From Candidatus Doudnabacteria bacterium (GTDB lineage: Bacteria > Patescibacteriota > Doudnabacteria > UBA920): DNA of 64,000 nt. The position numbers and the translations under genes were made by a program. Each line of letters starts with the position of its first letter. Position 1 is the stretch's first letter. Shown here piece after piece: positions 7,990-24,337 of the stretch. Below the pieces are notes generated by a model, which did no database searches, was not told the DNA's origin, and saw only the letters and a program-made list of their open reading frames with translations. Where the stretch lies: positions 3,348 to 67,347 of the forward strand of contig JAHFJJ010000002.1 in the NCBI GenBank assembly GCA_023245895.1. Reading direction: 5' to 3'.

Positions 7990-8110
7990 AGTCTTTATAT
8001 AACGTGCTTGTGGATAACTCTTGACAAAATTTAATAATTAGGATATAGTACGGGTACATTTGGCAGTAGTGCCATATGACATCAACTGCAGGACCTAGCG
8101 CCGAAAGGTG

Positions 8111-8722: not shown

Positions 8723-8879
8723 AGTTTATTGCTTTTTTTGATGTTTCTTTGCTTGTTAATAAGCATTTTCGTGATGTAACGAAAATGCTTATTAGTAGAT
8801 GTCGCAAAGTTTATCAGCCATTTTAAGCACTTCTTTATAGTTTATTTTACTACTTTTTCTCCTTTTCTTCAATCAAAAT

Positions 8880-8907
8880 AAAAGACCCCAAACCGTTGGA
8901 GTCTTTT
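8880..8907 (-). terminator. terminator hairpin after the vWA gene (aaaagactccaacggtttggggtctttt then a T-rich run on the minus strand)
   Basis: Stem-loop with a downstream T-run on the minus strand. A second perfect palindrome (taataagcattttcgt...acgaaaatgcttatta) lies at 8767..8806. Confidence 0.55.
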
Positions 8908-8957
8908 ATCTGGGATGCCTATACAACCAAGTCCGCGCCTGTCTGATGGGCAATATT

Positions 8958-11075
8958 CTAAATTTGCCTTCGCTTATCAATCTCCTTTCGCAAAAAACCT
9001 AACGCGTAGGGCAGGGCAGTAGCCGGTTTATCTGTGGAAAATGCAAAAATATTCTTGTTTTTATCTTTCAAAGGTTCAATATAGGAAGCGGTTACGGCCT
9101 CGGCTTCTTCCTGGTCATCGCCGTATCCGATTATTAAAAAAATAACCTGGCCGTCTTCCTCAATTTGCTGCATAACCGGGGCTATGCCCTCGCGGTTGCC
9201 TTGGCCGTCCGTAAACATAATAATTATTTTGATGACGTTATCTTTATTCAAGGCTAAAGCTTCGTGGACTTGCTTAACCGCGGCCACTTCGTCAGTACCG
9301 CCGCCGACTTGCGATAAGCGGTCTACAATCTTAATTTCTTTTTCGTCGCTCAAACGCTCTTCCAGCTTACTGACGCGCTCCGCCGCGGTTGAGTATTTAG
9401 TTACGCCGACCTGGAAAGGCTGCTCTTCGTCCGGGATAAGCAGGTTTTCCGCTTCCAGGTCTTTTAAAACCAGTTTGAAACTCTCCACAATAATAACGCC
9501 CATATCGGTGGACTTTTCAATCTTTTCGCCAAACATGGACTCCGAGGTGTCGTAGAGCAGTTCAAGCTGGGTTTGCAAAAATTGCGGATTGCGCACGAGC
9601 CTCATTTTGGTATCGGGGTCAAGCTCGCCGGTTAAAATTGCGGCTACGTGCTCATATTCCAAGCCCGGCACAATTTCGCCTTCGCGCTTGAGGTATTCAA
9701 TTTTTTTGCGTCTGTCGTCTAAAAATATTTCTGCCAAAACCGCGGCAGTAGACATAATTTCCGAAGGGTATTTTTCTTTGGTCCGCTCCCAGCTTTCTAT
9801 AGATTCCTGGCGGACTTGCATGCCTTCGGCCAGGCCTCTTTGGCGGCGCGCGCGGTCTAAGTCCCGCAAGGCTTCTGCCCGCGCCGCAAGCGCGTCCGCG
9901 CCGCGGTCGTCCTTAGGCGGGGCTACTGGAACTTTAGGCCCCTCTTTGCCCAGTATGCCCTCCAGTTCTTTCATTGCCTCGCCAAACTTTTCCCCATCCT
10001 CTTTGGAAGGCGCCTGGCTGGCATATTCTTTAGCTGCTTCTTCCAGTTCTTTGAGCAACTGGTTTTTTAGTTCTTCAATTTCTGCTTTGGTCAAAGGCAC
10101 GTCCGAAGTATCCCTGCCGGGCTTACCCGGCTTGCCGCCTTTGCCTTTTTGCCCTTCGCCTTTTTGTTTTTGCCGCTCTTCTTTTCGCTTCTCCAGCTCG
10201 GCAGTCATCAGCTTAAGGTACTCCGGCAGCCAGACTTGCTCGTAAGCCTGCATTTTACGCTCTAGACTGCGTTTTTGTTCGCCCTCTTTGGCAAAATAGG
10301 TGTAAGCCTGCCAATCCATGGTTGTGGACAGGGCTCGGCTGTCAATAATCCTGCGGAACGATTTATACACATCATCATCCAATTTTTTTCCAACCTCGGG
10401 GTCTTCATTAAAACGGTGCCTTAAAATAGACTGCAAAAGCTGTTGGGGTTTGGAATAATTTTTATATGTCTCCGGCGGCTTGTCCTCGGTATTAAGCGCG
10501 CGCACCGCGTTGCGGATTATAGTATAAGGCCGCCTGCCGGCAAAGGACTCCAGCCAAACATCAGCCACGGCATTATTGACATTGCCGTGAACCGCCCCTA
10601 AAAAGCGCTGTTCAGCGTTTGCGTCCCCTCTATATGCCTCGGGTATGGGCACATGTTTTAGGTTGCCAAGTAGCCTGTCCTGCAGTTCAGTAACTTCCGG
10701 AGCGTGGTGGAAAGCTTCGTGGTAAAAAAATCCTTTAGCCTCTGCTGGCTGCCAGGGCTCTACTCCAAATTCAGGCGCGCCGGTCGCGTGGATGGGATTA
10801 TAATAAATGGTTTTAGTGTTCAAGTTCGTATAACCGGACTTTAACACGCCTGTCTGGCGGAATTCCTGTTCAAGCGCCGGGTCCGGCCGGAACGAAAACC
10901 CGCCCGAAGCGCTGGAAAGCATTTTTAAATGCTCCGGGCTAATGACCTTTTCCATTTCCAAAGGCGGCCGTCCCGGTTTTTTTTCGCCCTTCCCATCCGG
11001 CGCGTCTGGAGGAAGCGGCGGTTGGTTTTGGCCCATTTCGTATTGTGCTGATTGCTTTTCGGATTTTTCGCTCAT
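8958..11075 (-). CDS. vWA-domain protein with an N-terminal HExxH (putative metallopeptidase) region, the MoxR-partner type
   Basis: 705 aa. N-terminal FFYHEAFHH holds the HExxH motif. The C-terminal vWA has the MIDAS motifs DTSES (DxSxS), GGGTD and FTDGQGN. A central Lys/Glu-rich low-complexity linker contains GKPGKPG. Confidence 0.8.
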   Translation of the reverse strand: MSEKSEKQSAQYEMGQNQPPLPPDAPDGKGEKKPGRPPLEMEKVISPEHLKMLSSASGGFSFRPDPALEQEFRQTGVLKSGYTNLNTKTIYYNPIHATGAPEFGVEPWQPAEAKGFFYHEAFHHAPEVTELQDRLLGNLKHVPIPEAYRGDANAEQRFLGAVHGNVNNAVADVWLESFAGRRPYTIIRNAVRALNTEDKPPETYKNYSKPQQLLQSILRHRFNEDPEVGKKLDDDVYKSFRRIIDSRALSTTMDWQAYTYFAKEGEQKRSLERKMQAYEQVWLPEYLKLMTAELEKRKEERQKQKGEGQKGKGGKPGKPGRDTSDVPLTKAEIEELKNQLLKELEEAAKEYASQAPSKEDGEKFGEAMKELEGILGKEGPKVPVAPPKDDRGADALAARAEALRDLDRARRQRGLAEGMQVRQESIESWERTKEKYPSEIMSTAAVLAEIFLDDRRKKIEYLKREGEIVPGLEYEHVAAILTGELDPDTKMRLVRNPQFLQTQLELLYDTSESMFGEKIEKSTDMGVIIVESFKLVLKDLEAENLLIPDEEQPFQVGVTKYSTAAERVSKLEERLSDEKEIKIVDRLSQVGGGTDEVAAVKQVHEALALNKDNVIKIIIMFTDGQGNREGIAPVMQQIEEDGQVIFLIIGYGDDQEEAEAVTASYIEPLKDKNKNIFAFSTDKPATALPYALGFLRKEIDKRRQI

Positions 11076-11140
11076 ATGCTATTATACTTAAATTTTTTAA
11101 TTTTCGGTACTTCGTTAAGTTTACTATGTATATCTCATTT

Positions 11141-11947
11141 TTAAAACTTTTTTGATTCAGGGATTTTAGAAGCGGCAATGCCTTGGTCTCGTTCTGGCAT
11201 TACCAATTCCAAACCCTCATCACCTATTTTAATTTCTTGAGCGGCTAAAATTTTCAAGCTCCTTGCAAGTTTAATAAAATTAAACCAATCATCAGCGTCT
11301 CTATATTCCCCAAGTTTCCTCTTCATTTTTTTCCAGGTTTTTTGGTCCGGTTGACAGTCAATTGGTACGCTTAAAAGTTTAATACGCGCCGCGAATTCAA
11401 CATACTCTTCCAGGTTCGAGGTTCGCTTTTCTTCCAATTCCATTTTCATGCCTTCAATCACCCGCTTATCTATACCCAGTTCCGCATCGGGTTTGAACAA
11501 CTTTAAACTCCCCGCCTCATAAGCAAAGTTCCAAAATTTATTGGCTGAACGAAGCGCCTGATTTTTGGACCTTTTTATGCTTCTTACTCCTGCGGCTACG
11601 GCTTTTTTTATAATCTCCTGGTCTGCGCTTATTTTAAGCACCCTTAAACAAGCTAAAAAACCTACATTTTCATAGGAACCGAAATCGGTGGTGGATTTTT
11701 GTTTTAACATTGCTTCTAATCCCCGGCGCCAGCTGTCGGTTAATTGGAATTTAATATTGGGATCCAGAATTTTTAAACTTAGCATATGATCTACGCTACC
11801 TGAGCTTTGGGAAAATGATTGCATTGCCCGCCAGTCTTCCTGCGTGACTTCAGTAGCGGTGTCAAAAGTTCCCGCAGGCCTTTCCTGCTCAACGCTGAAA
11901 TTTTTTATATTCAGTTCTTCCGCCGGAATTCGCGTTTCAATAGCCAT
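11141..11947 (-). CDS. tandem-array paralog 13 (most distal) of the 'M-A/S-I-E-x-R-I ... K-x-F' family
   Basis: 268 aa. Starts MAIETRIPAEELNIKNF and ends KIPESKKF. Confidence 0.8.
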   Translation of the reverse strand: MAIETRIPAEELNIKNFSVEQERPAGTFDTATEVTQEDWRAMQSFSQSSGSVDHMLSLKILDPNIKFQLTDSWRRGLEAMLKQKSTTDFGSYENVGFLACLRVLKISADQEIIKKAVAAGVRSIKRSKNQALRSANKFWNFAYEAGSLKLFKPDAELGIDKRVIEGMKMELEEKRTSNLEEYVEFAARIKLLSVPIDCQPDQKTWKKMKRKLGEYRDADDWFNFIKLARSLKILAAQEIKIGDEGLELVMPERDQGIAASKIPESKKF

Positions 11948-11951
11948 AAAA

Positions 11952-12815
11952 TTAAAACTTTTTTACTTCGGGCAGATCTTGGGTTTTAGCCCCAACTTTA
12001 GGCTCAGGCATTTTTATTTTTAAACCCGCTTCCGTAACCCTAACCTCCTCGGCCGCAAGAATACCTGCATCGGCAATAAGCACAACAGCCTCTCTTATAT
12101 TCCCGTCGCGCAGGTAATCGCTGATTGTCGTTCTAATCCCATCCCAGGCTTTGGCCGTTACCCTTATTTCTTTTAGTACATCGGGCGCGCCGACTTTTAA
12201 CAGCATTGCGTAATTAGTAAAATTAGCCCACTCCTCCGCCTGGCCGTAATCTTTTACAGACTGCACCATTTCCAAATCCGGGTCAAGGACTTCTTCCCGC
12301 AGGTCCAAAGGCATTTTATTTGGGTACAGTACTTTTAGCGCAATTTGTGTTTCAATTTGGTTCGCCGATGTGTCGAGGCTATTTTCTTTAGCCATTTCCC
12401 ATAAACCTTCGCCGTCTATGCCGTATTGGGAAAATTTGTCAGGCGCAAAAATTTTCAGGACAGCCGCATCCTGAACCGCATAGCCCAGTACGTCGACGTC
12501 GCATAATTCCCCATCGTCCACAAATCTAGCATAATTCTTCCAAAATTGTTTTTCCACAATTTCCTGGCATTTTTCGGCTACTTCTTTAATTTTTTCCGGG
12601 TTCATTTGCAGTAAAACGGTTAAAGCCCAGGCGGGGTAGTCTTCTGTTTCAGCATATTTTGAAGAATTATATTTTTCCAAATAATCTTTAATTTGCTTCC
12701 ACTCCTCTTCTTTGACATCGCGGATCGGATCAAATTCAACAGCCATCTCCAGCCTGTCAATGCTAAAATCCCTAATATTGAGTTCTTGGGTATTGATTCT
12801 TTCTCCGATGGCCAT
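11952..12815 (-). CDS. tandem-array paralog 12
   Basis: True start MAIGERINTQELNIRDF (ATG at 12813-12815); the ORF track extends it to 12944. Ends PEVKKF. Confidence 0.8.
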   Translation of the reverse strand: MAIGERINTQELNIRDFSIDRLEMAVEFDPIRDVKEEEWKQIKDYLEKYNSSKYAETEDYPAWALTVLLQMNPEKIKEVAEKCQEIVEKQFWKNYARFVDDGELCDVDVLGYAVQDAAVLKIFAPDKFSQYGIDGEGLWEMAKENSLDTSANQIETQIALKVLYPNKMPLDLREEVLDPDLEMVQSVKDYGQAEEWANFTNYAMLLKVGAPDVLKEIRVTAKAWDGIRTTISDYLRDGNIREAVVLIADAGILAAEEVRVTEAGLKIKMPEPKVGAKTQDLPEVKKF

Positions 12816-12816
12816 A

Positions 12817-13659
12817 TTAAAAATTTTTAGTTTTAGGAACCGGGGGCGTTTCCAGGATTTTTGGTTTTGGCTTGCTTTGCAGGTGGAGTCCCGATTGGTT
12901 AATTTCAATTTGGTCTGCTGAAATAATCGCAAGTTCACACGCAAAATCCAACTGGTCTTCAGGCGGCATGCTATGAAACTTTGTTTTTATTTCTATCCAC
13001 TCGGTTTCGTCCACAGCCTGTAAGTCAAACTTGCCAGGCAAAATAACGCGCAGGACGGCCAGTTGGCTTACCAAACTCCGCCAGGACTTTTTAGAGCGGC
13101 TTAATTTAATTGAACCTTGCAACTCCGGCAAAAAGTCTTTGGCTAATTTTAGCTTGTTGTTAGGCGTTAGGATTTTTAGGTTTTTATAGACTTCCTGGGT
13201 CAGACTGCCTGAGCCGACGCCTGCACAAAATTCAATTGCTTTATTTCTCGCGGCTAGTGGCAGTAAAAAATCCGGCATAATTTTTTTAATGGAGTATGCC
13301 GCGCGGATGAGCGTATCGGTGGTAGCGGCAGTCTCCCCGTTGGAATTTTTTTCAACCAGATATTCCCAGGTTTTTTCCAGCCCTTCTCTTAATTTCGTCA
13401 TTTGACCAGAGGACAGCCTTTTTAAAGTTTCCGCCTTCAAGAAACATAAATTGCCTAAGTTTTTTAGACGGTGGGGAACAACACTGCCTGAGGCAAGCCA
13501 GGGTAAATCTTCGGCAGCTAAATTTTCAAAAACTTTCCACTCCCGCTCGTAAATATCTTTTTTCGGGTCAAAGCCCGCGGTGTTGCCGGCTTGCTCTCTC
13601 TCGATGCTCAAACCTTTAATATTTAATTCTTCCCTAGGAATTCTATATTCAATAGGCAT
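12817..13659 (-). CDS. tandem-array paralog 11
   Basis: Starts MPIEYRIPREELNIKGL and ends PVPKTKNF. Confidence 0.8.
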   Translation of the reverse strand: MPIEYRIPREELNIKGLSIEREQAGNTAGFDPKKDIYEREWKVFENLAAEDLPWLASGSVVPHRLKNLGNLCFLKAETLKRLSSGQMTKLREGLEKTWEYLVEKNSNGETAATTDTLIRAAYSIKKIMPDFLLPLAARNKAIEFCAGVGSGSLTQEVYKNLKILTPNNKLKLAKDFLPELQGSIKLSRSKKSWRSLVSQLAVLRVILPGKFDLQAVDETEWIEIKTKFHSMPPEDQLDFACELAIISADQIEINQSGLHLQSKPKPKILETPPVPKTKNF

Positions 13660-13661
13660 AT

Positions 13662-14447
13662 TTAAAAGTTTTTAGTTTGCGGGACAGGTTGCGTGCTGGT
13701 GAGCGGCACTTGTTCTTCCGCCATAACCAATTCCAGCCCCTTGTCTGTAATTTTTACTTCTTTGGCGGCTAAAATTGACATGCTATAGGCAAGCATAAGG
13801 CTGTCAAGGTCCGTTTGGACTGTTTTTTGGAGGGTTGTTTTCATTGCTTTCCAGTCAGCTTTGCTTATTGCAGTCTTGGCAAATTCTTCCGGAAACAAAA
13901 TTTTTTCCCTGGCCGAGTAGGAAGCAAATAACCTGGGGGCGTGTAATTGTTTATCGGGCTCAAATTTCATATGCTGGAGCCACATACCGGCCTTTTCCGG
14001 AAACAGGATTTTCATATTTTTTGCCATTTCCCTGTAAGTTTGGTCCTTTTTAGCCAATCTTGTGTCGTGAAGCTTTTGAATAATCTTGCCTAAATAATTG
14101 TCCAGGTTTTTTGATTTAACCACTTCCGGCCATAATTGTTTAATGGTAGCGCCCAGTGAGGCAACGTCATACCATTGGTTTCGTCTTATGGCCTCGGAAA
14201 GGTCGCGGTCAGCCGCGTTTTTTTCTTGTTCCTGCGCGGGCAAAGCGCCGGGCTGCATGGTCCTAAGTCGGGCCAAGTAAGTATAGCCGCCTCTAGAAAG
14301 ACCATTAATAGCCAATTTAATTTTCCGCCATTGTTGCGGACTCAAATCCCGCGCGGGGTTAAACACCGCCCGGGTTTCCGCCCTATGCTCGGTGTGGAAG
14401 CTTTTAATATTCAAGTCTTGTTGTGGAATTCGTTGTTCTAAGGACAT
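13662..14447 (-). CDS. tandem-array paralog 10
   Basis: True start MSLEQRIPQQDLNIKSF; ends PVPQTKNF. Confidence 0.8.
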   Translation of the reverse strand: MSLEQRIPQQDLNIKSFHTEHRAETRAVFNPARDLSPQQWRKIKLAINGLSRGGYTYLARLRTMQPGALPAQEQEKNAADRDLSEAIRRNQWYDVASLGATIKQLWPEVVKSKNLDNYLGKIIQKLHDTRLAKKDQTYREMAKNMKILFPEKAGMWLQHMKFEPDKQLHAPRLFASYSAREKILFPEEFAKTAISKADWKAMKTTLQKTVQTDLDSLMLAYSMSILAAKEVKITDKGLELVMAEEQVPLTSTQPVPQTKNF

Positions 14448-14448
14448 A

Positions 14449-15279
14449 TTAGAAGTTTTTAATTTGGGGGATTTCTGGAGCTTTTTGCATAGTATTTTTT
14501 TCAGGCATAACAATTTCCAGGCCGTTGTCGCCAATTTTTGCTTCTTTGGCGCCAAGAATGGTCATTTCTTTTAATTTATAGCACGTGTAATAAAAGTCCC
14601 CATGAATAAGGCTGGATTCAACTGACTGCTTAAAATTTTTTTTCATCTCTTTCCAGTCGCCTGGGCCTATAACCAAGGCGTCCGGATAGCTCATTTTTAA
14701 GCTGGCGGCATCATTCCTAATAAGCTCCCAATATTTTTCCCGCTTTGCCTTTTGTGTTTTAAAATCAGCTAATATAATGTCTTTTGGTACCATATATTCT
14801 GGAGTAACTTCATCCGGAAATAGGATTTTCAAATAACAGTAAGTACGGGGAGAAAAGTTGTTTCTGATAGGGTTTAATTTTATTTTTTGCCATAAAGGGG
14901 CTAGTTTGGCTGTTAGGTTTTCAGCAGCAAAAGTTTCGGGGTCCAGCCTCTTGAGTTCAGCGGCGTCGACAAAAGGGTCGGTAATACTTTGCCCGGGCTC
15001 TTCTGCCTTTAGCAAGTCTTTTGTAAATTTTGATATTATCCTTTGCCTGCAAACTTCAGCCATATCCGGGAACAGTTCAGGATTAATCCCTTTTAAGAAT
15101 GTTAAAGTTCCTATTGGCAGTGCTTGGCTGTCGGCTGTTAAAATAAACTCTCTTAACGCCTTCCATTGCTCGGGAGTAACCTCTTCCATGGGATTAAACT
15201 CGATATTTACTCCCCGCTGTTCCAGGCTGAACTCCCTGATATTCAGTTGTTCGGTATTTATCCGTTGGTCTAAGGACAT
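14449..15279 (-). CDS. tandem-array paralog 9
   Basis: True start MSLDQRINTEQLNIREF; ends PEIPQIKNF. Confidence 0.8.
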   Translation of the reverse strand: MSLDQRINTEQLNIREFSLEQRGVNIEFNPMEEVTPEQWKALREFILTADSQALPIGTLTFLKGINPELFPDMAEVCRQRIISKFTKDLLKAEEPGQSITDPFVDAAELKRLDPETFAAENLTAKLAPLWQKIKLNPIRNNFSPRTYCYLKILFPDEVTPEYMVPKDIILADFKTQKAKREKYWELIRNDAASLKMSYPDALVIGPGDWKEMKKNFKQSVESSLIHGDFYYTCYKLKEMTILGAKEAKIGDNGLEIVMPEKNTMQKAPEIPQIKNF

Positions 15280-15280
15280 A

Positions 15281-16093
15281 TTAAAAATTTTTAATTTTTG
15301 GCAGGGTTGATTTAGTTTCGGCTTCAAAAGCCGCGGGTCGGGTTATTTCCAAACCATTTTCGGTAATCTCTATTGCAGGGGCTGTGGCAATAAGCAAGTT
15401 AAAGGCATCTCCCACAAGTTCAGAAGGATGAGTTTTGTTTTTCTTTAGGTGTTTTTTCATTGCTTGGACAAATTCTGGCCCAAGCTCGGGCTTAAACCAA
15501 GGGTCAATAGTTCTAATACAGGCGCCATATTTAAAAATATCTGAAACCGAGGAGCCTGGCCTGGCTTTTAGAGCATCAAAGTCTTCCTTAAAAATTACAT
15601 CCGGCCCCGCATCTAAGTTGGGCAGGAAAATATAATCGTTTAATTGCAAACCGGTTATTTTCATATCGGCAAAAACTTGCATACTGTAGAAAGGGGCGTC
15701 GCTTTTCAGAAATTTATCTATTGAGTTAACTTCTTTCGCCGTAAAATTAAATTCATAGTTTATTGGCTTTAAAATTTTTAGTGCCGCTAGCGTATCGAAA
15801 AATTGATCCCAATGCTCTAACATCCTGCTTTCTCTCACTACCGCCATAGTTCTCTCTTCCCATTCAGGGTCGAAGTTAATTGCGATTGCCGGATTTAAGA
15901 GCTTTATTTTAGAAGCAATCCGGGCGGAGTCATCGGGCTTAAATTCTTTATTTTCCTCCATTACCTGCAAAAGATCGTCCCACTGCTCAGCACTAATATC
16001 CCGCTCTGGGTCAAAGCTCTCGTTATTCCACTCCTGAAAATTAAAGTCTTTAATATTTAGTTGTTCGGTATTTATTCGTTTGTCTAAGGACAT
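15281..16093 (-). CDS. tandem-array paralog 8
   Basis: Starts MSLDKRINTEQLNIKDF and ends LPKIKNF. Confidence 0.8.
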   Translation of the reverse strand: MSLDKRINTEQLNIKDFNFQEWNNESFDPERDISAEQWDDLLQVMEENKEFKPDDSARIASKIKLLNPAIAINFDPEWEERTMAVVRESRMLEHWDQFFDTLAALKILKPINYEFNFTAKEVNSIDKFLKSDAPFYSMQVFADMKITGLQLNDYIFLPNLDAGPDVIFKEDFDALKARPGSSVSDIFKYGACIRTIDPWFKPELGPEFVQAMKKHLKKNKTHPSELVGDAFNLLIATAPAIEITENGLEITRPAAFEAETKSTLPKIKNF

Positions 16094-16094
16094 A

Positions 16095-16886
16095 TTAAAA
16101 AGTTTTAAATTGCGGGAGAGCGCCGGCAGGCTCAGCCAGCTCGCCCGAGGAAATGGTTAATTCCAGGCCATTGTCTGTTATTTTTATTTCCTCGGCCGAA
16201 ATTATGCCCATATAGTAGGCCAGTTTAATGGCCCTTAAATAATCACGGCTGTTTTGGCGCTTTTCAAAAAGAATTTGGAATTCGTATTTCATTTTTTTCC
16301 AGTTTTCTTTGGACACAGGGGCTTTTTTAAATTTTTCCGGCGCGACAATTTTTTGGCTGGCCTTAAAGCCGGCGTAGGTTTCGGCAAATTGGTATTCAGG
16401 TTCGGTATTAAGCTCTGGAATTTTAAATTTTTCTGCTTTGTCCGGAAACAGTATGGTTAATTCCCTGGCCATTTGTATCCTATTGACTTCGCCAAACTTT
16501 CCTTCCAAAGCCAGCGCCAGTTGGTCCAAATCACCTTCAAGGCCTATGGCTTTAAACTCTTTTGGATAAAGCTGCTTCATCGCAAGCGCTATTTTTGGCA
16601 CTGCCCGCCAGTTGTCTTTGGCCATCAAAGCCTCTAGTTCGTCGCTAACAACCGACTTGGTGGAAGGCTTGTCTACTATTTTGTATAAACAGCCCGGCCT
16701 TATAGTCCTTAGTTCCGCCAAAGCCGTCCAGGACAAATGGGTATTCATAAAACTTTCAATAATTTTCCATTGCTCGGGCGTAATATCCCTGTTTAAATTA
16801 AACTCCTGGGGTGCCTCCTGGACGCCAAGGTTTAGGTCCTTTATATTTAAATCTTCTGAATCTAATACGCGGTTTTCAATAGCCAT
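16095..16886 (-). CDS. tandem-array paralog 7
   Basis: Starts MAIENRVLDSEDLNIKDL and ends ALPQFKTF. Internal repeats include AMKQLYPKEF and LTILFPDKAEKF. Confidence 0.8.
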   Translation of the reverse strand: MAIENRVLDSEDLNIKDLNLGVQEAPQEFNLNRDITPEQWKIIESFMNTHLSWTALAELRTIRPGCLYKIVDKPSTKSVVSDELEALMAKDNWRAVPKIALAMKQLYPKEFKAIGLEGDLDQLALALEGKFGEVNRIQMARELTILFPDKAEKFKIPELNTEPEYQFAETYAGFKASQKIVAPEKFKKAPVSKENWKKMKYEFQILFEKRQNSRDYLRAIKLAYYMGIISAEEIKITDNGLELTISSGELAEPAGALPQFKTF

Positions 16887-16888
16887 AG

Positions 16889-17731
16889 TTAGAAATTTTT
16901 AATTTTCGGAATTGCCGGCGTTGCCTGGCTTATTTGGGCGTTGTTTGACAGCTCCATGCCGTGGTTTGTAAATTTCACCTCTTTGGCCGCCATAGTAGCC
17001 AGCCATTCGGCTAAGTTTATATACTGTAAACAGTCATGGCCGCTTTGGCAATTGTCTAATTTTTCAAAAAGTTGGGTTTTCATAGCTTCCCAGTTTTTTG
17101 CGGTAATTTTTACTTTCGCGAATTCTTCCGGAAACAAAATTTTCAACAGGGCCGCGCTTTTGCAAAACATATACCAATTGCCGCCTTTATTTTGCGCCAT
17201 ATCTTGTTTCAATAGCGAAACGTCGTTGTCCTTCAACAGGTCTTTTTCTTGGCCAGGGAAAAGAATTTTAAAATAAAGAACGTTGTCTAAATCTACTGTA
17301 CCCCGGCCTGTTATTTTAGGCTTCCTTAAGGCTTCGGCCATTCGTTCGCGATATTGCTCGGCCAATGCTTGCGAAAACCTTTCCGGAAATAAGGTTTTCA
17401 TTTCGGCAAAATTACCAAGCAAATTATCATAGCCCATTTCTCCCCGCTCGCAATGGCGTAAAATGGTTTTGGCGAATTTATCCATCTTCTGCCATTTTTT
17501 ATTGTCAGATTTTTCAAATAGTCTTTTTGGTTCAATCACCTGCAAACTTGCCAAATAAAGGTCAACATTTTCTTTTCGCGCAGACCGTTCCATTTTATCC
17601 CATTGCGCTTTGCTCAAATCCCTTACCGGATCAAAAGGTACATCCTTAGAAGACTCCGCCGAGGGCAACTGCTCCAGGTTTAACGAGCTAATATTCAATT
17701 CTGCCGGGTTAACCCGCTGTTCTATGGACAT
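16889..17731 (-). CDS. tandem-array paralog 6
   Basis: True start MSIEQRVNPAELNISSL; ends PAIPKIKNF. Confidence 0.8.
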   Translation of the reverse strand: MSIEQRVNPAELNISSLNLEQLPSAESSKDVPFDPVRDLSKAQWDKMERSARKENVDLYLASLQVIEPKRLFEKSDNKKWQKMDKFAKTILRHCERGEMGYDNLLGNFAEMKTLFPERFSQALAEQYRERMAEALRKPKITGRGTVDLDNVLYFKILFPGQEKDLLKDNDVSLLKQDMAQNKGGNWYMFCKSAALLKILFPEEFAKVKITAKNWEAMKTQLFEKLDNCQSGHDCLQYINLAEWLATMAAKEVKFTNHGMELSNNAQISQATPAIPKIKNF

Positions 17732-17732
17732 A

Positions 17733-18530
17733 TTAAAATTTTTTAATTTCAGGAATACGCGAACCAAGTTCCGGTAATTTTTGTACTGCCGGCGACAGTT
17801 CCAGTCCCCTATTCGTAAATTTCAGCTCGCTCGCGGAAATAATAGCCATGTCCCTGGCCAAAGTTATGGCTTTGTCTAAATTCGTGCCTTTTAATTCCGC
17901 GCGCAAGTCTTGTTGCATTCCTTTCCAGGCATTGTCGCCGATGTTTTGAATATTAAAACGTCCAGGAAATAAAATCCGTAATGTGGCCATATCTACAGCT
18001 AAGCTTGGCCAATTTTTGAGTTTTTTTGAAAGACCAATGTTTAGGGTAATAGCAGTAAAATCTTCTTCGTTTACTTCCACTCTTTCAGGCAGCAACCTTT
18101 TCATTCGAGTAGCAAGGTCAAAATAAAGAGCGTCATTCCAATGCCTTAACGCAATGTTTTCCAAGTCCTCGCGGGCAATAAATTTTTCCCACTGGTCAGG
18201 CCATAACTGCCTAATTGACGCGGCGACATCCAAAAAAACCAGCTGGGCTTGAACGTGATTTACTTCCTTTACTCTCCTGGAAATCTGCTCGCTTAGTTCC
18301 GGGTTGGTTGCCGGATTGGGGAGGTTGGGAAAGCTTTCAGGCCTTATTAAGCGCAAATCCGCAATTCTTTCCCAGACATGGTAAGTTTGCTCTACTTCCT
18401 TCGCGTCTGCTTCCATGCGCCGCCAGTCGTCGGGTTTAATATCAAATTCCAGCAAGCCTTTTTCCGGAGTCTGGATATTAAAGTTCTTTATATTCAATTC
18501 TGCCGGGTTAACCAGCTGTTCTATGGACAT
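17733..18530 (-). CDS. tandem-array paralog 5
   Basis: Starts MSIEQLVNPAELNIKNF and ends RIPEIKKF. Confidence 0.8.
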   Translation of the reverse strand: MSIEQLVNPAELNIKNFNIQTPEKGLLEFDIKPDDWRRMEADAKEVEQTYHVWERIADLRLIRPESFPNLPNPATNPELSEQISRRVKEVNHVQAQLVFLDVAASIRQLWPDQWEKFIAREDLENIALRHWNDALYFDLATRMKRLLPERVEVNEEDFTAITLNIGLSKKLKNWPSLAVDMATLRILFPGRFNIQNIGDNAWKGMQQDLRAELKGTNLDKAITLARDMAIISASELKFTNRGLELSPAVQKLPELGSRIPEIKKF

Positions 18531-18531
18531 A

Positions 18532-19365
18532 TTAAAAATTTTTAATTTCGGGCGTCGGTGGAGTCGCGGTTTCTGATTGTTTTTTTGGCATCACCAACTC
18601 CAAGCCCTGCTCTGTAATTTTAATTTCCTGGGCGGCTATCATTGCAAGGTCGCGGATCATGCCGGCTTGGTCCACGCTTTTAGTCTTTCCCTGGGCCAAT
18701 AAAAACTTTAAATGACTTCGCCAAATTTCCCAGGTTTGGCAATCAACTTTTAACTTTTTGGCGTCATCCGGAAGCAAAGCCTTAAAGGCCGCAAAATACG
18801 CGAGTTTTAAGCTAAAATCATCAGCCATAACCTGTTGCAAGGGTTCATTTATAGGTTCTCCTTTTGCCAGAGTTTCCAACCAGGGATCTGTGGGTATTTT
18901 ATCTAAACTGAGTTCACCCGCCCGGTCGGGAAACAGAACCCTCATATCAATTAAAAATCCCGGACCTACGTCGCCTGATGCCAGCTGCTCATTTCCTTTA
19001 CGCCACAGTTTCGGGGCGGTTCTAAAAGTTAGCGGTTCAAATTTATCCGGAAAAAGTTGCTTAAACCCCGCGTATTCCGTAACCACGGAATACCAAAGGT
19101 TTTCGTCAATTAACCCTTGAATCCTCCTTTTAAAAATATCACCCTCCGGCACCGGAATATGGGTAAACTTATCCGGCCGTACTTGCCGAAGCACAGCCAG
19201 CATGCCATAAAAGGCGGGATTGTCAGATATGGTTTGGCTTAAAAGTTCCCAATCCCTTTCGCTCACGTCCCGCTTAGGATCAAATTCAACGCCGGCCTGC
19301 GGCTGTTCCAGGTTCAGTTCTTTTATATTCAATTCTTGCCGATCAATCCGTTTTTCTATGGACAT
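18532..19365 (-). CDS. tandem-array paralog 4
   Basis: True start MSIEKRIDRQELNIKEL; ends PTPEIKNF. Confidence 0.8.
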   Translation of the reverse strand: MSIEKRIDRQELNIKELNLEQPQAGVEFDPKRDVSERDWELLSQTISDNPAFYGMLAVLRQVRPDKFTHIPVPEGDIFKRRIQGLIDENLWYSVVTEYAGFKQLFPDKFEPLTFRTAPKLWRKGNEQLASGDVGPGFLIDMRVLFPDRAGELSLDKIPTDPWLETLAKGEPINEPLQQVMADDFSLKLAYFAAFKALLPDDAKKLKVDCQTWEIWRSHLKFLLAQGKTKSVDQAGMIRDLAMIAAQEIKITEQGLELVMPKKQSETATPPTPEIKNF

Positions 19366-19366
19366 A

Positions 19367-20203
19367 TTAAAAATGTTTAGCTTCCGGCAGCGGCGAGTCC
19401 GCTGTGAAATTTGTTTCCGGTAAAATAATAACTCCGCGTTCATCAATATGTGCGTCCGGGCAGGATAAAATTTTTAAATAACTTCCGACCCTCATCAGTT
19501 CGTAGGGAGCCCCCTGTTCTAGCCAAAATTTTTTAATGCCGCTCCAGTCTCGCGCTTTAATTAGGGGTTTTACATCCGGAGCCATTAACTTTAACGCTAC
19601 TGCTTTGGCTAAATCCGCACTTAAATGGAATTTTGAGTTGGGTGTTATAGCGAAAGATGTTTTTTTCATCTCCTCTATGGCTTTTTCCATAACTTGAGTC
19701 CATCGCATGCCTTTTAAATGCTGGGGAAAAACTTGCACCGCTTCCAAATGCTCATAGGGAAACGCAAGCGAACTTTCAATGCGGTCGTCAACCAGCTTCC
19801 AGTTCTCTTCCGAATTCCACTTTTTCCAAACATCGGTCCGCTCAGGAAACAGCCTTTTATATGCAGACGCGATACCTAAAAATTGCTGTACAGAAGGGCG
19901 GCTGCCTGTAGTCAGAGGCATTTCATTTGCCGCGGCTTCAAGAGCGCTGGCTAATTTTTCTGAAACTTGCGCATCGGGAAACAAAAATTTATAATTCGCC
20001 AAATAATCGGGCTTTTGCCCGAAAGCCGGCCTGCCTTCTTCCCAGTCACCGCTTATCCTAAGAAAGTTTTGCAGGCAGACCTCTCTGGTATTTTTTGGAA
20101 TTTCAACCTCGGGGTTAAATTTAAACCCGTCCACAGGCTCCTGTTCAAAGCTCAGCTCCTGGACTTTTAATTCGTTCGGGTCAATGCGTTTTTCAATGGC
20201 CAT
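19367..20203 (-). CDS. tandem-array paralog 3
   Basis: Starts MAIEKRIDPNELKVQEL and ends PLPEAKHF. Confidence 0.8.
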   Translation of the reverse strand: MAIEKRIDPNELKVQELSFEQEPVDGFKFNPEVEIPKNTREVCLQNFLRISGDWEEGRPAFGQKPDYLANYKFLFPDAQVSEKLASALEAAANEMPLTTGSRPSVQQFLGIASAYKRLFPERTDVWKKWNSEENWKLVDDRIESSLAFPYEHLEAVQVFPQHLKGMRWTQVMEKAIEEMKKTSFAITPNSKFHLSADLAKAVALKLMAPDVKPLIKARDWSGIKKFWLEQGAPYELMRVGSYLKILSCPDAHIDERGVIILPETNFTADSPLPEAKHF

Positions 20204-20204
20204 A

Positions 20205-21011
20205 TTAAAAATGTTTAGTTTCCGGAGGGCCGGTTTTGTTGTCAGTCTGCATTTCTGTTAAATTGCCCAACTCCAGGCCATTGTTTGTAACTTTTACTGT
20301 AGAAGCCGAGGCAATAACTGCGTTTACCGCATTTTCTGAAACCGGGAAAAGATCTGTTAATTCTGTCCCTGCCTTTAGTACTCCTTTTATAGCTTGGAAG
20401 TGTTTGGGTGTTAATTCAGGGTCAAAATTAGGTTTAACAATTCTCATACTGGCGGCGAAGCGGAATAGTTTTTCAATGGGCGCCTTCTCTTTCATTTCAG
20501 CCATGGTGGCTTCCAAAACACCCCAAAACTCCGGCGTAAGATATTTGTCCATAGGCAGGCCAATAATTTTTATTTCCGCTAAATGCAGCAATTGATAATA
20601 AGGTTCCATATTCGGGTCTGTCAGGAACACTTCTATAGACTCCGCTTCTTCCTGGCTGAATACAAATTTTTTTGAAGGCTGTAGAATCTTGATTGCTAAA
20701 GCTAGCGGTAAAAAGTCGCCCCACTCTTCGTCTTTTTTGTCAGTTTGTAATTCGTTTTCAATTTTAGTAAATTCTTCAGTCTCGATTTTTGGAGCTTCGT
20801 TTGGATACAAGATTTTGAGGTTTGCAGACATTAACGCGACATAATATCTACTACTTCCAGCCCTATAAGATTCTAAATCTCTAAACAAGCCCTGTTTTTG
20901 GCTTTGACTGAAGTCTCTTTTTGGATTAAAAAGGAAAGGCTGTTGCTTTTCGTTGAGGCTCAGTTCTTTGATATTCAGCCCTTCTTGGCTTATTCGTTTT
21001 CCAATAGGCAT
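20205..21011 (-). CDS. tandem-array paralog 2
   Basis: True start MPIGKRISQEGLNIKEL; ends GPPETKHF. Confidence 0.8.
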   Translation of the reverse strand: MPIGKRISQEGLNIKELSLNEKQQPFLFNPKRDFSQSQKQGLFRDLESYRAGSSRYYVALMSANLKILYPNEAPKIETEEFTKIENELQTDKKDEEWGDFLPLALAIKILQPSKKFVFSQEEAESIEVFLTDPNMEPYYQLLHLAEIKIIGLPMDKYLTPEFWGVLEATMAEMKEKAPIEKLFRFAASMRIVKPNFDPELTPKHFQAIKGVLKAGTELTDLFPVSENAVNAVIASASTVKVTNNGLELGNLTEMQTDNKTGPPETKHF

Positions 21012-21012
21012 A

Positions 21013-21876
21013 TTAAAAATGTTTAATTTGTGGGGCGTCAAATTTTGGCTTTCCGATGGGTGTAACCGGCATAACAAATTTAATCCTATTGTCTTCAACC
21101 ACAATGCGTTCCGCGGCCAAAGCTTGCAAAGTTGCCGCAACATTTAAAAATGTAGTCCAATTGCCCCTCTTCCGCCATCCTTCAAGGATGTCCCTTAGTT
21201 TTTTTACAGGCGGCAATTTCCCCTGCCAATGTGCGGCAAGTTCCGGGAAAGCGTACTTAATAGCGGCGGTTCTATTGATAAGCACGGAAGTTTCGTTTAA
21301 GTGTTTTTTGTTGTCACTATATTGTTTGTAAGCCCATTCCCAGGCAGTGGCACAAAACTGTTTTGCTTCTTCCGGCAGAGGTTCGGTCGGATAACAAATT
21401 GCGAAATTTTTAATTAACTTTACACCCTCATCAATCCAGTTGGTTGTCGTGTAATACAAAACGCTTTCTTTTAAAAGCTTAAATATTTCCGGGTTTTTTA
21501 AAATTTGCGCGCAATTCTGCGGGAACAAAATTTTCATCATCATTAGAGCCTCTGCTAGTTTTCCCGGTTTGCTTTCAGTTAAGTGTTGTTCTATTATAGT
21601 TTTTAAATTTTCTTCCTTAACAAAAGTTTTATTCTCATATGGAAAGTGCAAAAGCTGCGCGGGCGCCAAATAGTAGATGCTGGCGTACAAGTCATTTTCC
21701 GCTCTGGGCGCGCCGGAAGCTTTTTTAAAACTTACCAAAGACTCCAATATCCTGGTTTTGTCTGAATCTGTTATGTCGCGATTGGCATCAAATAAAATTT
21801 CAGTACTTTGGGAGCTTTCCAAAGATAAATCCTGAATTTTTATTTCTTGCGGATCAATCCGTGTTTCTATGGCCAT
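21013..21876 (-). CDS. tandem-array paralog 1 (first after the ATPase)
   Basis: True start MAIETRIDPQEIKIQDL (ATG at 21874-21876); ends DAPQIKHF. Confidence 0.8.
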   Translation of the reverse strand: MAIETRIDPQEIKIQDLSLESSQSTEILFDANRDITDSDKTRILESLVSFKKASGAPRAENDLYASIYYLAPAQLLHFPYENKTFVKEENLKTIIEQHLTESKPGKLAEALMMMKILFPQNCAQILKNPEIFKLLKESVLYYTTTNWIDEGVKLIKNFAICYPTEPLPEEAKQFCATAWEWAYKQYSDNKKHLNETSVLINRTAAIKYAFPELAAHWQGKLPPVKKLRDILEGWRKRGNWTTFLNVAATLQALAAERIVVEDNRIKFVMPVTPIGKPKFDAPQIKHF

Positions 21877-21919
21877 AGTCTTAAAAAACAAGCCGGAGTT
21901 TCCGCTCCGGCTCGTTAGG

Positions 21920-24043
21920 TTAAAATTGCTTTGCCGCGGGCACGAATTCGGTGGTGGCAAAACCCTGCAAACCGCGGATTTGCTTTATTATTTCTTCAAA
22001 ATCTTTTTTAGTGTCTTCCGAAGCCTTTTTGCGCTCATCATAAGCTTCCTGGCCAATATAGCCCATGATTTTGTCTTTTAATTTTTCGTCATCCATAAGA
22101 ATGCCTACGCTGGTAAGCATATCCACAACCGCTTTGGGGTTTTCACTGCCTTCAAATTGCTTGTAGCTTTCCACCATCACCTGGTAAACCGCTTCGTCAA
22201 AGGACATTTTGCTTGCCTGATAGAGCGGTTTTTTGTTTTTTGCGTCGCGGTAGAGAACAAGTTTTTCCCCAAGGTCCCGGATGGTACGGTAAGAAAGCGG
22301 AATCGTCTGCCTTTTGCCTTCCAAAAAAGAGCGTATTTTAGGAAAGGCTTCGTTAATTAAGGTGTAAAGTTTTCCTAAGTCTTCTTTAGAGCGCAAGAAT
22401 GTGCCGTCGGGGTTAGCCAGCGCGGAAAGCGACACCAACATTTCCTCTTTGCGTGGCGGGTAGGGAATTTCCATAACTTTGCCTTCGGCGCGCGAAGCCA
22501 AAGCTTCCGGGACTTCAAAGACACCATGCTTGCGTTCAATGTTGGCGGTAAAATACATCCTCCAATTATCGGGAATCGGAATACGCTCATCGTTATCCGC
22601 AAAATACCAATCCTCCCCGGGTTTGGCAGTTAAAAGCCCGTAAATTAAGCTCCAGTTTTTGTTTTTGTTAAATTCGTCCATTAGCACGCTGTCCCCCCGC
22701 CTTAGGGCCGCTGTAATAACCCCGTCGCGCCAGCCGTTCTTTTTGACAATATGCGCGAACTTTTTGGCCAACTCCCCGCGGAAAGCCGCCTCGGCCATGT
22801 TTACAACTTTGGTTTGTAAGTCGCGCAATTGCGGTACATCTGCTGCCTTGGTTTTTTCAGCTGCCTGCAAAGATTCCTGTATTTGGGCTATTGCTGTAAC
22901 AGCCGCCTCGTCCGGATTGAGATGCAAAGTTTCCCCAAGGAGCTTGCTGTGTTCGGAAACAAAATCCCTAAATTTTTCAGGATCCAGTCCTCGAAGGTCA
23001 TCGCTCAGCTTATTATAGTACTCAGTTGGGTCTTTAAATTCCAAAGATTTTGAACCGTAGAGCATGTAGCGGGTTACATCTTCGGACAAATCAAGATAAA
23101 CATAATTCCTGCCTTTTTCTTCCAGGTAATGGCGGACAAGCGTGGTCTTGCCCACGCCCGGAGGCCCAACTAAAACGCCGCCGACTGTGGTGCGCTGGTG
23201 CTGGGTTTCCCATTCATGGAGCATGTTTAAAGAATGGATGACGCTTTGCGTTTCCACTACATCTTCGCCTTCTGAAAATTGTTTTAAAACAGTTTCTATT
23301 TCTTCTTTGCCGGAAAAATACCTGACCATGGGGTCTTCCCACAGTTCCTCTATTTTAGCCCTGGCCGCGGCGAGTTCTTCTTGCAGCTGCTTTTTTGAAC
23401 GCGGAAGTTTGCGCTCTTTTTGAGTTTTAAATTCTTTTAAGGCGTTTACATACTCCTCTGATTCCTCATCAAAAATAGTTTTTAGCGCCTGTTCAATATT
23501 GTTGACATCGTCAGTTTGGACTTCGTCTGAAACCGACTGGCGCTGGCTTACGGCCTCGGCGCGGGCGTAAGAAATATCATCCAGGCCTTCGGCGCTGGCA
23601 AAGCTTGCCTGCTCAAGCAAGCCTGAAAGTTGGGTCGCGGTTTTAAGGCTATTTTTAAACTCTAAATAGTCAAGCTTCGAGCGGATGTATTCCCTATAGG
23701 CTTTTTCAAAAGACAGCTTTTCTTCGTCGCCCAGCCAGCCTTCAATTTCCGTTTTTTTGGCCTTATAATGTTGGGCGGCTAAAAATCTGTCATCGGCGCT
23801 TTTTGCAGACTTAACAATGCTCCTCAAATCCTGGGCTTGTTTTATCAAGAGCTGGAATTGTTCAATAGCTTTAAGGCGCAAATCACGTTCAAGTTCCGGG
23901 ACATTTTCCAAAGCTTGCTCGCGGGCTTCCCTTAAAACCCTATTTGCTTCAGGCTGTGTTTTTGTCTTTCTGCTTTCCTTTGCGGCGGCTTTTACTTCGG
24001 GCACTTCCCCACCCAAATGACGCGGCAATAGACGTTCGGGCAT
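21920..24043 (-). CDS. AAA+ ATPase (MoxR/AAA_5-like core with a long coiled-coil N-terminal region), first gene of the operon
   Basis: 707 aa. Walker A is GPPGVGKT and Walker B is DSVLMDEFNK, the DE-x-N-R/K signature of the MoxR/dynein-related clade. About 160 aa are inserted between the two Walker motifs. The C-terminus ends ...VPAAKQF, a K-x-F tail like that of the downstream paralogs. Confidence 0.8.
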   Translation of the reverse strand: MPERLLPRHLGGEVPEVKAAAKESRKTKTQPEANRVLREAREQALENVPELERDLRLKAIEQFQLLIKQAQDLRSIVKSAKSADDRFLAAQHYKAKKTEIEGWLGDEEKLSFEKAYREYIRSKLDYLEFKNSLKTATQLSGLLEQASFASAEGLDDISYARAEAVSQRQSVSDEVQTDDVNNIEQALKTIFDEESEEYVNALKEFKTQKERKLPRSKKQLQEELAAARAKIEELWEDPMVRYFSGKEEIETVLKQFSEGEDVVETQSVIHSLNMLHEWETQHQRTTVGGVLVGPPGVGKTTLVRHYLEEKGRNYVYLDLSEDVTRYMLYGSKSLEFKDPTEYYNKLSDDLRGLDPEKFRDFVSEHSKLLGETLHLNPDEAAVTAIAQIQESLQAAEKTKAADVPQLRDLQTKVVNMAEAAFRGELAKKFAHIVKKNGWRDGVITAALRRGDSVLMDEFNKNKNWSLIYGLLTAKPGEDWYFADNDERIPIPDNWRMYFTANIERKHGVFEVPEALASRAEGKVMEIPYPPRKEEMLVSLSALANPDGTFLRSKEDLGKLYTLINEAFPKIRSFLEGKRQTIPLSYRTIRDLGEKLVLYRDAKNKKPLYQASKMSFDEAVYQVMVESYKQFEGSENPKAVVDMLTSVGILMDDEKLKDKIMGYIGQEAYDERKKASEDTKKDFEEIIKQIRGLQGFATTEFVPAAKQF

Positions 24044-24261
24044 ATATTTTGGTTAATTTAAAGTTGGTTTCTTTTGTTGATTTTAGGCTAAAACACCCTT
24101 TAATTATAATATAAATTTTGTTATTTTGCAAAAAGGCTTTTATTATAGGCAATCCGAGCTTATTCCCTTAAAGTAAAAAATTGATTTCAGCCCACAAACA
24201 CAATGGGCTGCGCTAAGCGCAGCCCGAATTCAAGCCTTAAAATCTTCTTCTTGTAGTATTA

Positions 24262-24337
24262 TGGAGCCCAAGTGCGGAATTGAACCGCAGACCTTCTCCT
24301 TACCATGGAGATGCTCTACCAACTGAGCTACTTGGGC
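24262..24337 (-). tRNA. tRNA-Thr (anticodon GGU)
   Basis: Reverse complement reads GCCCAAGTAGCTCAGTTGGTAGAGCATCTCCATGGTAAGGAGAAGGTCTGCGGTTCAATTCCGCACTTGGGCTCCA. A TATAAT sits 7 nt upstream. Confidence 0.85.

Follow-up and report, generated by a model that had tools for sequence, protein, structure and literature searches.

The DNA analysed here (the window) is a stretch of 64,000 nucleotides (nt) of Candidatus Doudnabacteria bacterium (GCA_023245895.1, contig JAHFJJ010000002.1), a tiny groundwater bacterium whose genome of 1.14 Mb is 91% complete; all coordinates given below are positions in this stretch, unless another locus is named. Between positions 24043 and 8958 its minus strand carries a cluster of 15 open reading frames (ORFs), about 15 kb in length, composed of a gene for an AAA+ ATPase, 13 tandem paralogs and a gene for a protein that combines an HExxH motif with a von Willebrand factor A (vWA) domain. 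An earlier note on this DNA had described 15 minus-strand genes at these coordinates, and the same ORFs were recovered in our analysis. The cluster, with its upstream border and its putative signals, has the following components:

24262-24337, minus strand: tRNA-Thr(GGT) (ARAGORN), the upstream border of the inserted segment, outside the system
24103-24131, minus strand: promoter-like TTGCAA-17-TATAAT 5' of the ATPase gene (consensus match only, 10/12 positions)
21920-24043, minus strand: AAA+ ATPase, 707 amino acids (aa; Pfam AAA_5)
21880-21919, minus strand: terminator- or attenuator-like hairpin with U-run in the gap between the ATPase gene and paralog 1 (RNA folding)
21013-21876, minus strand: paralog 1, 287 aa
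20205-21011, minus strand: paralog 2, 268 aa when counted from the conserved start MPIGKRI
19367-20203, minus strand: paralog 3, 278 aa
18532-19365, minus strand: paralog 4, 277 aa when counted from the conserved start MSIEKRI
17733-18530, minus strand: paralog 5, 265 aa
16889-17731, minus strand: paralog 6, 280 aa, the modelled copy (AlphaFold2)
16095-16886, minus strand: paralog 7, 263 aa
15281-16093, minus strand: paralog 8, 270 aa
14449-15279, minus strand: paralog 9, 276 aa
13662-14447, minus strand: paralog 10, 261 aa
12817-13659, minus strand: paralog 11, 280 aa
11952-12815, minus strand: paralog 12, 287 aa
11141-11947, minus strand: paralog 13, 268 aa
11090-11110, minus strand: putative remnant of a paralog's tail within the 65-nt spacer, V-P-K-I-K-K-F (read from the sequence)
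8958-11075, minus strand: predicted CobT-like adaptor (HExxH-vWA), 705 aa (Pfam VWA, 18-homolog alignment, N-domain model)
8876-8911, minus strand: terminator-like hairpin with U-run 3' of the vWA gene (-19.7 kcal/mol, z -3.5)

The earlier note had reported TAA-N-ATG junctions throughout the cluster. This holds for 12 of the 14 junctions, which consist of TAA, 1-4 nt and ATG; the remaining two are wide, with 43 nt between the ATPase gene and paralog 1 and 65 nt between the last paralog and the vWA gene. The further claim, that the genes form one transcription unit, is uncertain, since the terminator-like hairpin that follows the ATPase gene counts against it. This structure (-21.8 kcal/mol, z -5.2) was matched in folding energy by 0 of 200 shuffled sequences, and it may serve as a terminator or as an attenuator setting the ratio of the ATPase to the array. 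The hairpin is not conserved in two other loci (L010 and L046), where no intergenic gap exists between the two genes. A TATAAT sequence is located immediately 5' of the vWA start codon. Two paralog ORFs (paralog 4, 18532-19443, and paralog 2, 20205-21143, both on the minus strand) can be extended to in-frame upstream ATGs, in which case they overlap the preceding gene. The M-x-I-[EG]-K-R-I motif conserved at the start points in both to translation from the internal ATG, and the upstream ATG of paralog 2 is probably unused.

The ATPase has an AAA_5-type core, preceded by an N-terminal extension of ~260 aa, presumably helical, and followed by a C-terminal extension ending in PAAKQF. The Walker motifs on which the earlier note based its identification of a 707-aa AAA+ protein are present (GPPGVGKT, and DEF within VLMDEF) and invariant in 33 homologs, in which G293, P295, G296, G298, K299, T301, D456, E457, N501 and R518 do not vary. 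The distance of ~155 aa between the two Walker motifs is compatible with an enlarged insert, which is no proof of the clade-6 architecture (a helix-2 insert and a pre-sensor-1 beta-hairpin). The sole significant Pfam family is AAA_5 (PF07728; 43.5 bits against a cut-off of 22, E 4e-11), which was also the best family in all 33 homologs scanned (best E 2e-14). The AAA_5 clade of Pfam includes CobS, NorQ, CbbQ, GvpN, McrB and the dynein/midasin cores. The proposed MoxR/AAA_5 type therefore stands in its second half: AAA_3 (MoxR proper, PF07726) was absent both from the 14 families listed for the ATPase at E≤0.1 and from the matches of the 33 homologs. Residues 435-535 match GvpN (7.7e-8), and a weak match to phrog_249 'porphyrin biosynthesis' was obtained for the window ATPase (6.9e-6) and for 28 of the 33 homologs (best 4.2e-10). 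A sequence search of solved structures returned Walker-A-level matches only (VCP-like, ClpB). In metagenomes 75 homologs of this ATPase were found, and those with source names belong to lineages of the candidate phyla radiation (CPR).

The last gene of the cluster encodes both domains ascribed to it in the earlier note, i.e. an HExxH motif, present as YHEAFHH, and a vWA domain (4.5e-12 with Pfam VWA) that has the adhesion site dependent on metal ions (MIDAS). Four regions can be distinguished in this protein, hereafter the adaptor: an M48-like zincin domain (~40-300), a low-complexity variable linker (~300-420), a conserved pre-vWA segment (~429-505) and the vWA domain itself. In 18 homologs H119, E120, H123, H124 and D172-x-W174-L-E176 are invariant, as is the complete MIDAS signature DxSxS...T...D (D509, S511, S513, T594, D623). 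The invariant HExxHH with its downstream D-x-W-L-E suggests a retained metal site, in which E176, placed by the model in the next long helix, is a candidate third zinc ligand.

A model of the adaptor N-domain (280 residues, predicted local distance difference test, pLDDT, 87.8) consists of a helix (8-17), three strands (22-25, 42-45, 50-53) and a helical bundle. Its best neighbours among solved structures include zincins: ZMPSTE24 (Z 5.8), Ste24p (5.1), jannalysin (4.8) and selecase (4.6), followed by HtpX (4.6), ArdC (4.5) and SPRTN (4.2). When this domain alone was compared with predicted viral structures, phage 'CobT'/vWA proteins of 520-730 aa occupied 9 of the 10 top places (probability 0.92-1.0, E 0.01-0.07), and in the ESM Atlas it reached template modelling scores of 0.60-0.67 with viral and haloarchaeal VWA+CobT_C clusters. 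Foldseek against the PDB gave nothing at E≤0.001 for the N-domain, and a sequence search of solved structures with the adaptor found only integrin I-domains and artificial repeat proteins. CobT_C (PF11775) was weakly matched by 8 of the 18 adaptor homologs (best E 2.9e-4), and CobT (PF06213) was not among the 25 listed of the 35 families that these homologs match. Taken together, the models suggest that the adaptor has the architecture of CobT, with an M48-like domain, a long linker and a vWA domain.

The 13 paralogs (261-287 aa, counted from ATG starts) are 19-25% identical to paralog 1, and every paralog copy in the genome belongs to this single array. Their start is conserved (M-x-I-E-x-R-I-x3-E-L-N-I-K), and their C-terminal end is invariant (P-x-x-K-x-F). 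The conserved terminal residues are encoded by varied synonymous codons, which argues that the shared termini reflect selection at the protein level and not recent gene conversion. At other loci the tail K is replaced by R and the F by Y; these swaps and the synonymous codons led us to reject the tail as a nucleotide-level signal of translational coupling.

The earlier note could assign these proteins to no known family, and they had indeed zero matches in Pfam, NCBIfam, PHROGs and PADLOC; a scan of 133 family members revealed no recurrent Pfam family, and an ESM Atlas feature search with one paralog gave nothing usable. A large family nevertheless emerged when 1.84 billion cluster representatives were searched with a profile: 1,770 of them matched at E≤1e-3, and 1,180 still did so at E≤1e-10 (each standing for a cluster at 50% identity), nearly all of 260-300 aa. 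The tail [LIM]-P-[EQ]-x-[KR]-x-F recurs among 140 full-length representatives, with P(-6) in 129, K/R(-3) in 134 and F(-1) in 131. The family N-terminus reads (D/E)-R-I-N-I-[KH]-[DE]-L...E-E-P...F-D-P, with ERINIK[DE]L in the family at the place of E-L-N-I-K in the window. Three longer family proteins (P0165, 575 aa; P0180, 915 aa; P0187, 523 aa) contain one or two paralog-like modules and represent fused or tandem forms.

The AlphaFold2 model of paralog 6 (22 sequences; pLDDT 82.5, predicted template modelling score 0.80) is built entirely of helical repeats, with a C-terminal beta-hairpin, and has low confidence at residues 1-26 and 265-280. A motif [KR]-x-[LIVMF]-x-P occurs in 3-5 copies per paralog at a spacing of 40-49 aa (repeat of ~43 aa), and nearly all conserved positions are either structural repeat residues or lie in the termini. 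Catalytic-looking conserved residues, transmembrane segments and signal peptides were looked for in the paralogs and not found; their isoelectric points range from 4.5 to 9.6. Foldseek against the PDB identified no solved relative of the model at E≤0.001. An exhaustive structural aligner placed alpha/alpha toroids at the top, i.e. transcobalamin (Z 8.8), the thioester domain of C4a (8.2) and squalene cyclase (7.9); matches of Z 8-9 lie below the level that marks true helical relatives and would reflect merely a common helical arrangement. We read the paralogs, on the strength of this model, as soluble solenoid or toroid scaffolds with variable surfaces.

The combination of ATPase, HExxH-vWA protein and paralog arrays, for which the earlier note had proposed to check, is repeated in many CPR loci. 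The ATPase and vWA genes occur together in every sufficiently long related locus, and most of these loci add paralog arrays, whose size ranges from 1 to at least 23 members. The arrangement of the genes is variable: ATPase-11 paralogs-vWA at L010, ATPase-vWA-10 paralogs at L012, 12 paralogs divergent from the ATPase gene at L011 (whose 722-kb contig also contains the vWA gene), and arrays flanking the ATPase gene on both sides at L035. Staskawiczbacteria and Parcubacteria add further loci to this list. Some lineages have expanded the paralog family very strongly: in a locus of Daviesbacteria (L036; GCA_030650035.1, JAUSEZ010000027.1) a single ATPase of 939 aa is surrounded by at least 23 paralogs in a stretch of 22.8 kb, and another genome (G312) contains 61 first-look paralog candidates over several contigs. 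Distant ATPase-vWA pairs (31-36% ATPase identity; labelled Kerfeldbacteria, Altiarchaeota and Gammaproteobacteria) have no paralogs detected in the available sequence, and the same applies to a pair on a short contig labelled Deltaproteobacteria (L052; 42% identity over a partial ATPase). Pairs in metagenome-assembled genomes (MAGs) labelled as non-CPR (L053, Altiarchaeota; L054 and L048, Gammaproteobacteria; L052) reflect either a wider host range or binning errors.

The tails of the paralogs are uniform within a locus and differ between loci. In 5 of 7 loci with arrays the terminal tail of the ATPase resembles the local paralog tail (e.g. LPE[MV]RKF versus IPESRKF, [MI]PEQKQF versus LPDQKQI, and IPEIKKF versus VPEIRKF). 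We take this locus-specific match as the best available sign that both kinds of tail are bound by one common receptor. The tail motif has lineage-specific variants: in two Parcubacteria MAGs (L047, L049) a sub-family of paralogs ends in P-E-R-K-E-L-N and the local ATPases in R-K-L-K-A-[VA]-A.

The order rpsB-tsf-tetratricopeptide repeat (TPR) gene-tRNA-Thr(GGT)-methyltransferase gene is found in congeners, and in two relatives (G018, G010) the tRNA-Thr gene is directly followed by the methyltransferase gene. Here the two are separated by 16 kb, comprising the gene cluster and a gene for an NYN-domain protein (8111-8722), with the far side of the segment at 7222-8722. The cluster is an insertion beside tRNA-Thr, i.e. 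an island-like acquisition. Within the inserted segment we found no integrase, and no attachment (att) repeat of the tRNA end of ≥10 nt at the far border. The paralogs are absent from 40 relatives, including 18 species of the same genus, and of 401 genomes sampled evenly across the phylum, 7 gave paralog matches and 4 gave ATPase matches. The other loci occupy unrelated genomic contexts. One 100%-complete genome (G301) contains a lone paralog-like ORF (C3:64373-65044; E 5.6e-36, partial) and gave a negative result with the ATPase query; this ORF may be an orphan copy.

The components of the system diverge at very different rates. Between the window and L010 the ATPases are 70% identical and the adaptors ~60%, while across loci the paralogs reach 21-28% in their best matches, no more than paralog pairs taken at random. 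A clear ortholog elsewhere exists for paralog 13 alone, with 54% identity to L009:3198-4019. Even between L009 and L010, whose adaptors are 82.5% identical, the vWA-adjacent paralog is not conserved. By these comparisons, the paralog repertoire diversifies or turns over much faster than the ATPase and the adaptor, which favours a role in recognition, conflict or host interaction over one as fixed structural subunits. The V-P-K-I-K-K-F stretch in the 65-nt spacer of the window is probably the leftover tail of a deleted paralog, and would be a trace of such turnover.

It has been shown that CobT consists of an M48C-like N-domain, a disordered linker of ~90 aa, a 'shaft' entering the CobS ring and a vWA/MIDAS domain, and that CobN is placed between both domains of CobT, an armadillo-like solenoid beside the MIDAS being its main hold (bioRxiv 10.64898/2026.07.21.739949). 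The system described here resembles CobS-CobT-CobN in its AAA_5 motor, in the build of its adaptor (an M48-like domain with a three-stranded sheet and helices, a linker, a pre-vWA segment and a full MIDAS) and, going by the model, in the helical repeats of its paralogs, which recall the solenoid through which CobN docks and would dock in the same manner. It differs in having an ATPase of twice the CobS size, extended at the N-terminus by ~260 aa and carrying an insert of ~100 aa, in the invariance of its HExxH motif, and in that 10-25 hypervariable paralogs with terminal motifs take the place of one effector. No match to CobN/ChlH (PF02514) was found in the 91%-complete genome, a search in which five control genomes were matched. 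Because the CobT_C match is weak, no CobT or CobS model was matched and no CobN was found, we do not file the pair as a cobalt chelatase, although by analogy it probably works like CobS/CobT.

The cobST pair is also widespread in tailed viruses, where cobT is often annotated as a peptidase (PMC8651126). The couple of an AAA+ protein and a vWA/MIDAS protein is likewise the common feature of the MoxR-vWA pairs (RavA-ViaA, CbbQ-CbbO, NorQ-NorD, CoxD-CoxE), in which the vWA protein is the adaptor to the client (PMC7159879). The present system departs from them in the lack of an AAA_3 match, in its cis-encoded diversifying array and in the zincin-like domain of its adaptor. The nearest conceptual relatives are the vWA-MoxR ternary conflict systems (VMAP, iSTAND, FtsH, beta-propeller; Kaur et al. 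2020, PMC7159879), which combine a MoxR-like ATPase, a vWA protein, a diversifying third component and a peptidase element, and are patchy in distribution and seemingly horizontally acquired. They occur mainly in multicellular bacteria, their effectors are fused to vWA/VMAP, and they have one third component instead of arrays. A term search of the available parts of PMC7159879 did not find a solenoid family with a PExKxF tail; with PADLOC the ATPase matches were non-significant and nothing was obtained for the adaptor or the paralogs. In the literature searched for CPR together with AAA, vWA or tandem arrays, a locus of this type was not found described. A further parallel is provided by Midasin/Rea1, in which an AAA_5-type motor and a MIDAS grip a short conserved element of several clients that are removed in an ATP-driven manner. 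Midasin differs in being a eukaryotic, single giant polypeptide, whose clients are ribosome assembly factors with ubiquitin-like domains.

With a probability of about 0.5, we propose that the cluster encodes a CobS/CobT-like motor-adaptor pair with a diversifying solenoid repertoire in the place of the effector. It would be a three-component module in the manner of CobS-CobT-CobN, NorQ-NorD-NorB and CbbQ-CbbO-Rubisco. The MoxR-vWA label given to the pair in the earlier note is refined to the CobS/CobT type, which the pair most resembles because its HExxH domain is M48-like and has phage CobT-like vWA proteins as best structural neighbours. The motor would be the AAA_5-class ATPase, and the adaptor would join an M48-like zincin, a disordered linker and the vWA/MIDAS domain. 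The single effector would be replaced by tandem diversifying helical-repeat proteins, each with a variable body between two conserved flexible peptides. We suppose that a paralog is held by the adaptor through its ends, its constant last helices and its hairpin, in a site bounded by the zincin-like domain and the MIDAS face (on the model of CobN and CobT), and that the ATPase spends ATP on the remodelling, loading, release or proteolytic processing of the docked paralog. The look-alike tail of the ATPase may engage the same docking site, and the invariant HExxH leaves room for real proteolysis, i.e. trimming or degradation. Conflict or host interaction would most likely be the setting in which the variable bodies serve as a repertoire of binding surfaces.

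Several points qualify this proposal or weigh against it. The make-up of the cluster, the co-conservation of its parts, the tail motif with its locus-specific match, the fast divergence of the paralogs and the island-like acquisition are observed; all physical contacts, any proteolysis and the biological role are inferred by us. The claim that the paralogs are clients is based on synteny, the shared tails and the CobSTN analogy. A complex prediction of the adaptor with a paralog scored 0.02 against a mark of 0.32, which speaks neither for nor against binding. The pairs with no detectable paralogs nearby (L051-L054) indicate that the pair is not strictly dependent on them, and the ATPase of L012 has no tail, though the locus contains an array. 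The fold likeness of the zincin domain is modest (Z 4.6-6.1), and the Foldseek E values against phage CobT (0.01-0.06) exceed the usual 0.001. For the ATPase, neither Pfam nor NCBIfam gave a match to CobS, CobS_N or AAA_3 at E≤0.1, and the best solved-structure match of its profile is ClpB, around Walker A only. The strong hairpin 3' of the ATPase gene speaks against a simple single transcript, and no record of expression as RNA or protein was found.

A bolder form of the proposal, which we regard as possible but less likely than not, is that the loci represent a new class of conflict system of CPR bacteria, serving either immunity or interaction with a host, in which 10-25 germline-encoded, rapidly turning-over intracellular solenoid 'receptors' are plugged into an AAA+/vWA/zincin switch. 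The tail and the N-terminal peptide would connect the receptors to the switch, which would then activate, release or destroy them.

Different functions for the same set of proteins can also be envisaged. The paralogs could be subunits of a heteropolymer (a filament, coat or cage) joined head to tail by their conserved termini, with variable bodies exposed as in flagellins or pilins and the ATPase-vWA pair acting as an assembly chaperone, a function proposed for GvpN in gas vesicles and for the MoxR/vWA pair of the tail of the archaeal virus ATV. The conserved termini around a variable middle, the alternating strand-like pattern of INIK[DE]L, the beta-hairpin ending the model of paralog 6, the GvpN match of the ATPase, and the MoxR-vWA pairs known in phage-tail assembly (PMC7159879) are in line with such a structure. 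We consider it doubtful, however, since a copy number of 1 to at least 23 and the near-complete turnover of the repertoire between related loci fit a polymer poorly, the ATPase bears the tail in several loci, and the paralogs have no signal peptides or transmembrane segments. Also rather unlikely is a split two-gene ATP-dependent protease of FtsH-like arrangement, in which the tail and N-terminal peptide would be degrons, captured by the vWA domain, and the ATPase would unfold the paralogs for degradation or trimming by the zincin, thereby controlling the level of a regulator, inhibitor or sensor. The degrons of AAA+ proteases are usually terminal tags, HExxHH and D-x-W-L-E are invariant in the 18 adaptor homologs, the fold resembles M48 peptidases and minigluzincins, and the N-terminal and Walker A region of the ATPase aligns best with ClpB and Lon. 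Against this, AAA_5-type motors are remodellers and not known processive unfoldases, the third zinc ligand of the adaptor is only a candidate, and the M48C-like domain of bona fide CobT is a docking module with no peptidase activity reported (10.64898/2026.07.21.739949).

It is distinctly unlikely that the paralogs are effectors exported against the host of an episymbiont, with the basic-aromatic tail as a secretion signal and the pair as an export chaperone or coupling factor. The hypervariable repertoire, the patchy, island-like occurrence (7/401 genomes) and the conserved C-terminal signal would suit this function, but no secretion-system genes are conserved beside the loci, signal peptides are lacking and the cytoplasmic ATPase bears the same tail. 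An ordinary cobalt/magnesium chelatase pair of the CobST type, serving tetrapyrrole metabolism and merely neighboured by unrelated paralogs, is disfavoured and very improbable: the CobT-like architecture of the adaptor and the phrog_249 matches of 28 of 33 ATPase homologs are opposed by the missing CobN/ChlH match, by the lack of any matching CobS or CobT model and by the tight co-conservation of the pair with the paralogs, whose tail is common to the ATPase. Equally little credence can be given to a prophage or phage-derived structural module. Its insertion next to a tRNA gene and the phage proteins found as the nearest structural neighbours of the adaptor might suggest such an origin; however, the paralogs and the adaptor have no PHROG match, tblastn with the adaptor and one paralog against 50,697 phage records gave no match, IMG/VR yielded only Walker-A-level (generic P-loop) matches of the ATPase, the segment is devoid of an integrase and of an att repeat of ≥10 nt, and the neighbours at other loci are cellular genes.

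The motor-adaptor pair with its solenoid repertoire fills 1.3% of the tiny genome described here, and occupies more than 20 kb in the Daviesbacteria genome. Such a large share of the tiny genomes of CPR/Patescibacteria points to strong selection for a function not yet named. The system defines a large protein family (1,770 clusters) with a sharp C-terminal motif, and it would carry the principle of motor, adaptor and effector, known from CobSTN, NorQD and CbbQO, beyond a single fixed client to a multi-client array that diversifies. If the repertoire is a recognition system, it would provide a new way for minimal cells to encode diversity. The cellular context of these genes could also help to explain the enigmatic CobS/CobT-like genes of phages; should the conflict function be true, the cobST pairs found widely in phages may likewise serve as modules for remodelling or proteolysis and not as chelatase subunits.

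Some features of the neighbourhood deserve a brief comment. At L010 (2190-3389), which among the related loci is closest to that of the window, a gene with a weak RimK/ATP-grasp match lies directly 5' of the ATPase gene. RimK-type ligases modify protein C-termini, and this gene is suggestive given the tail motif; it was set aside as a part of the system, as it occurs at one locus only. The remainder of the 64-kb window contains housekeeping genes. Contigs from two runs of one groundwater study cover parts of the array with zero differences. The TPR gene upstream of the island was rejected as a partner, because it is kept in all 18 congeners without the island. In the closest congener (L024; G012:C3:5053-5784) the ortholog of this TPR gene reads through one in-frame TGA.

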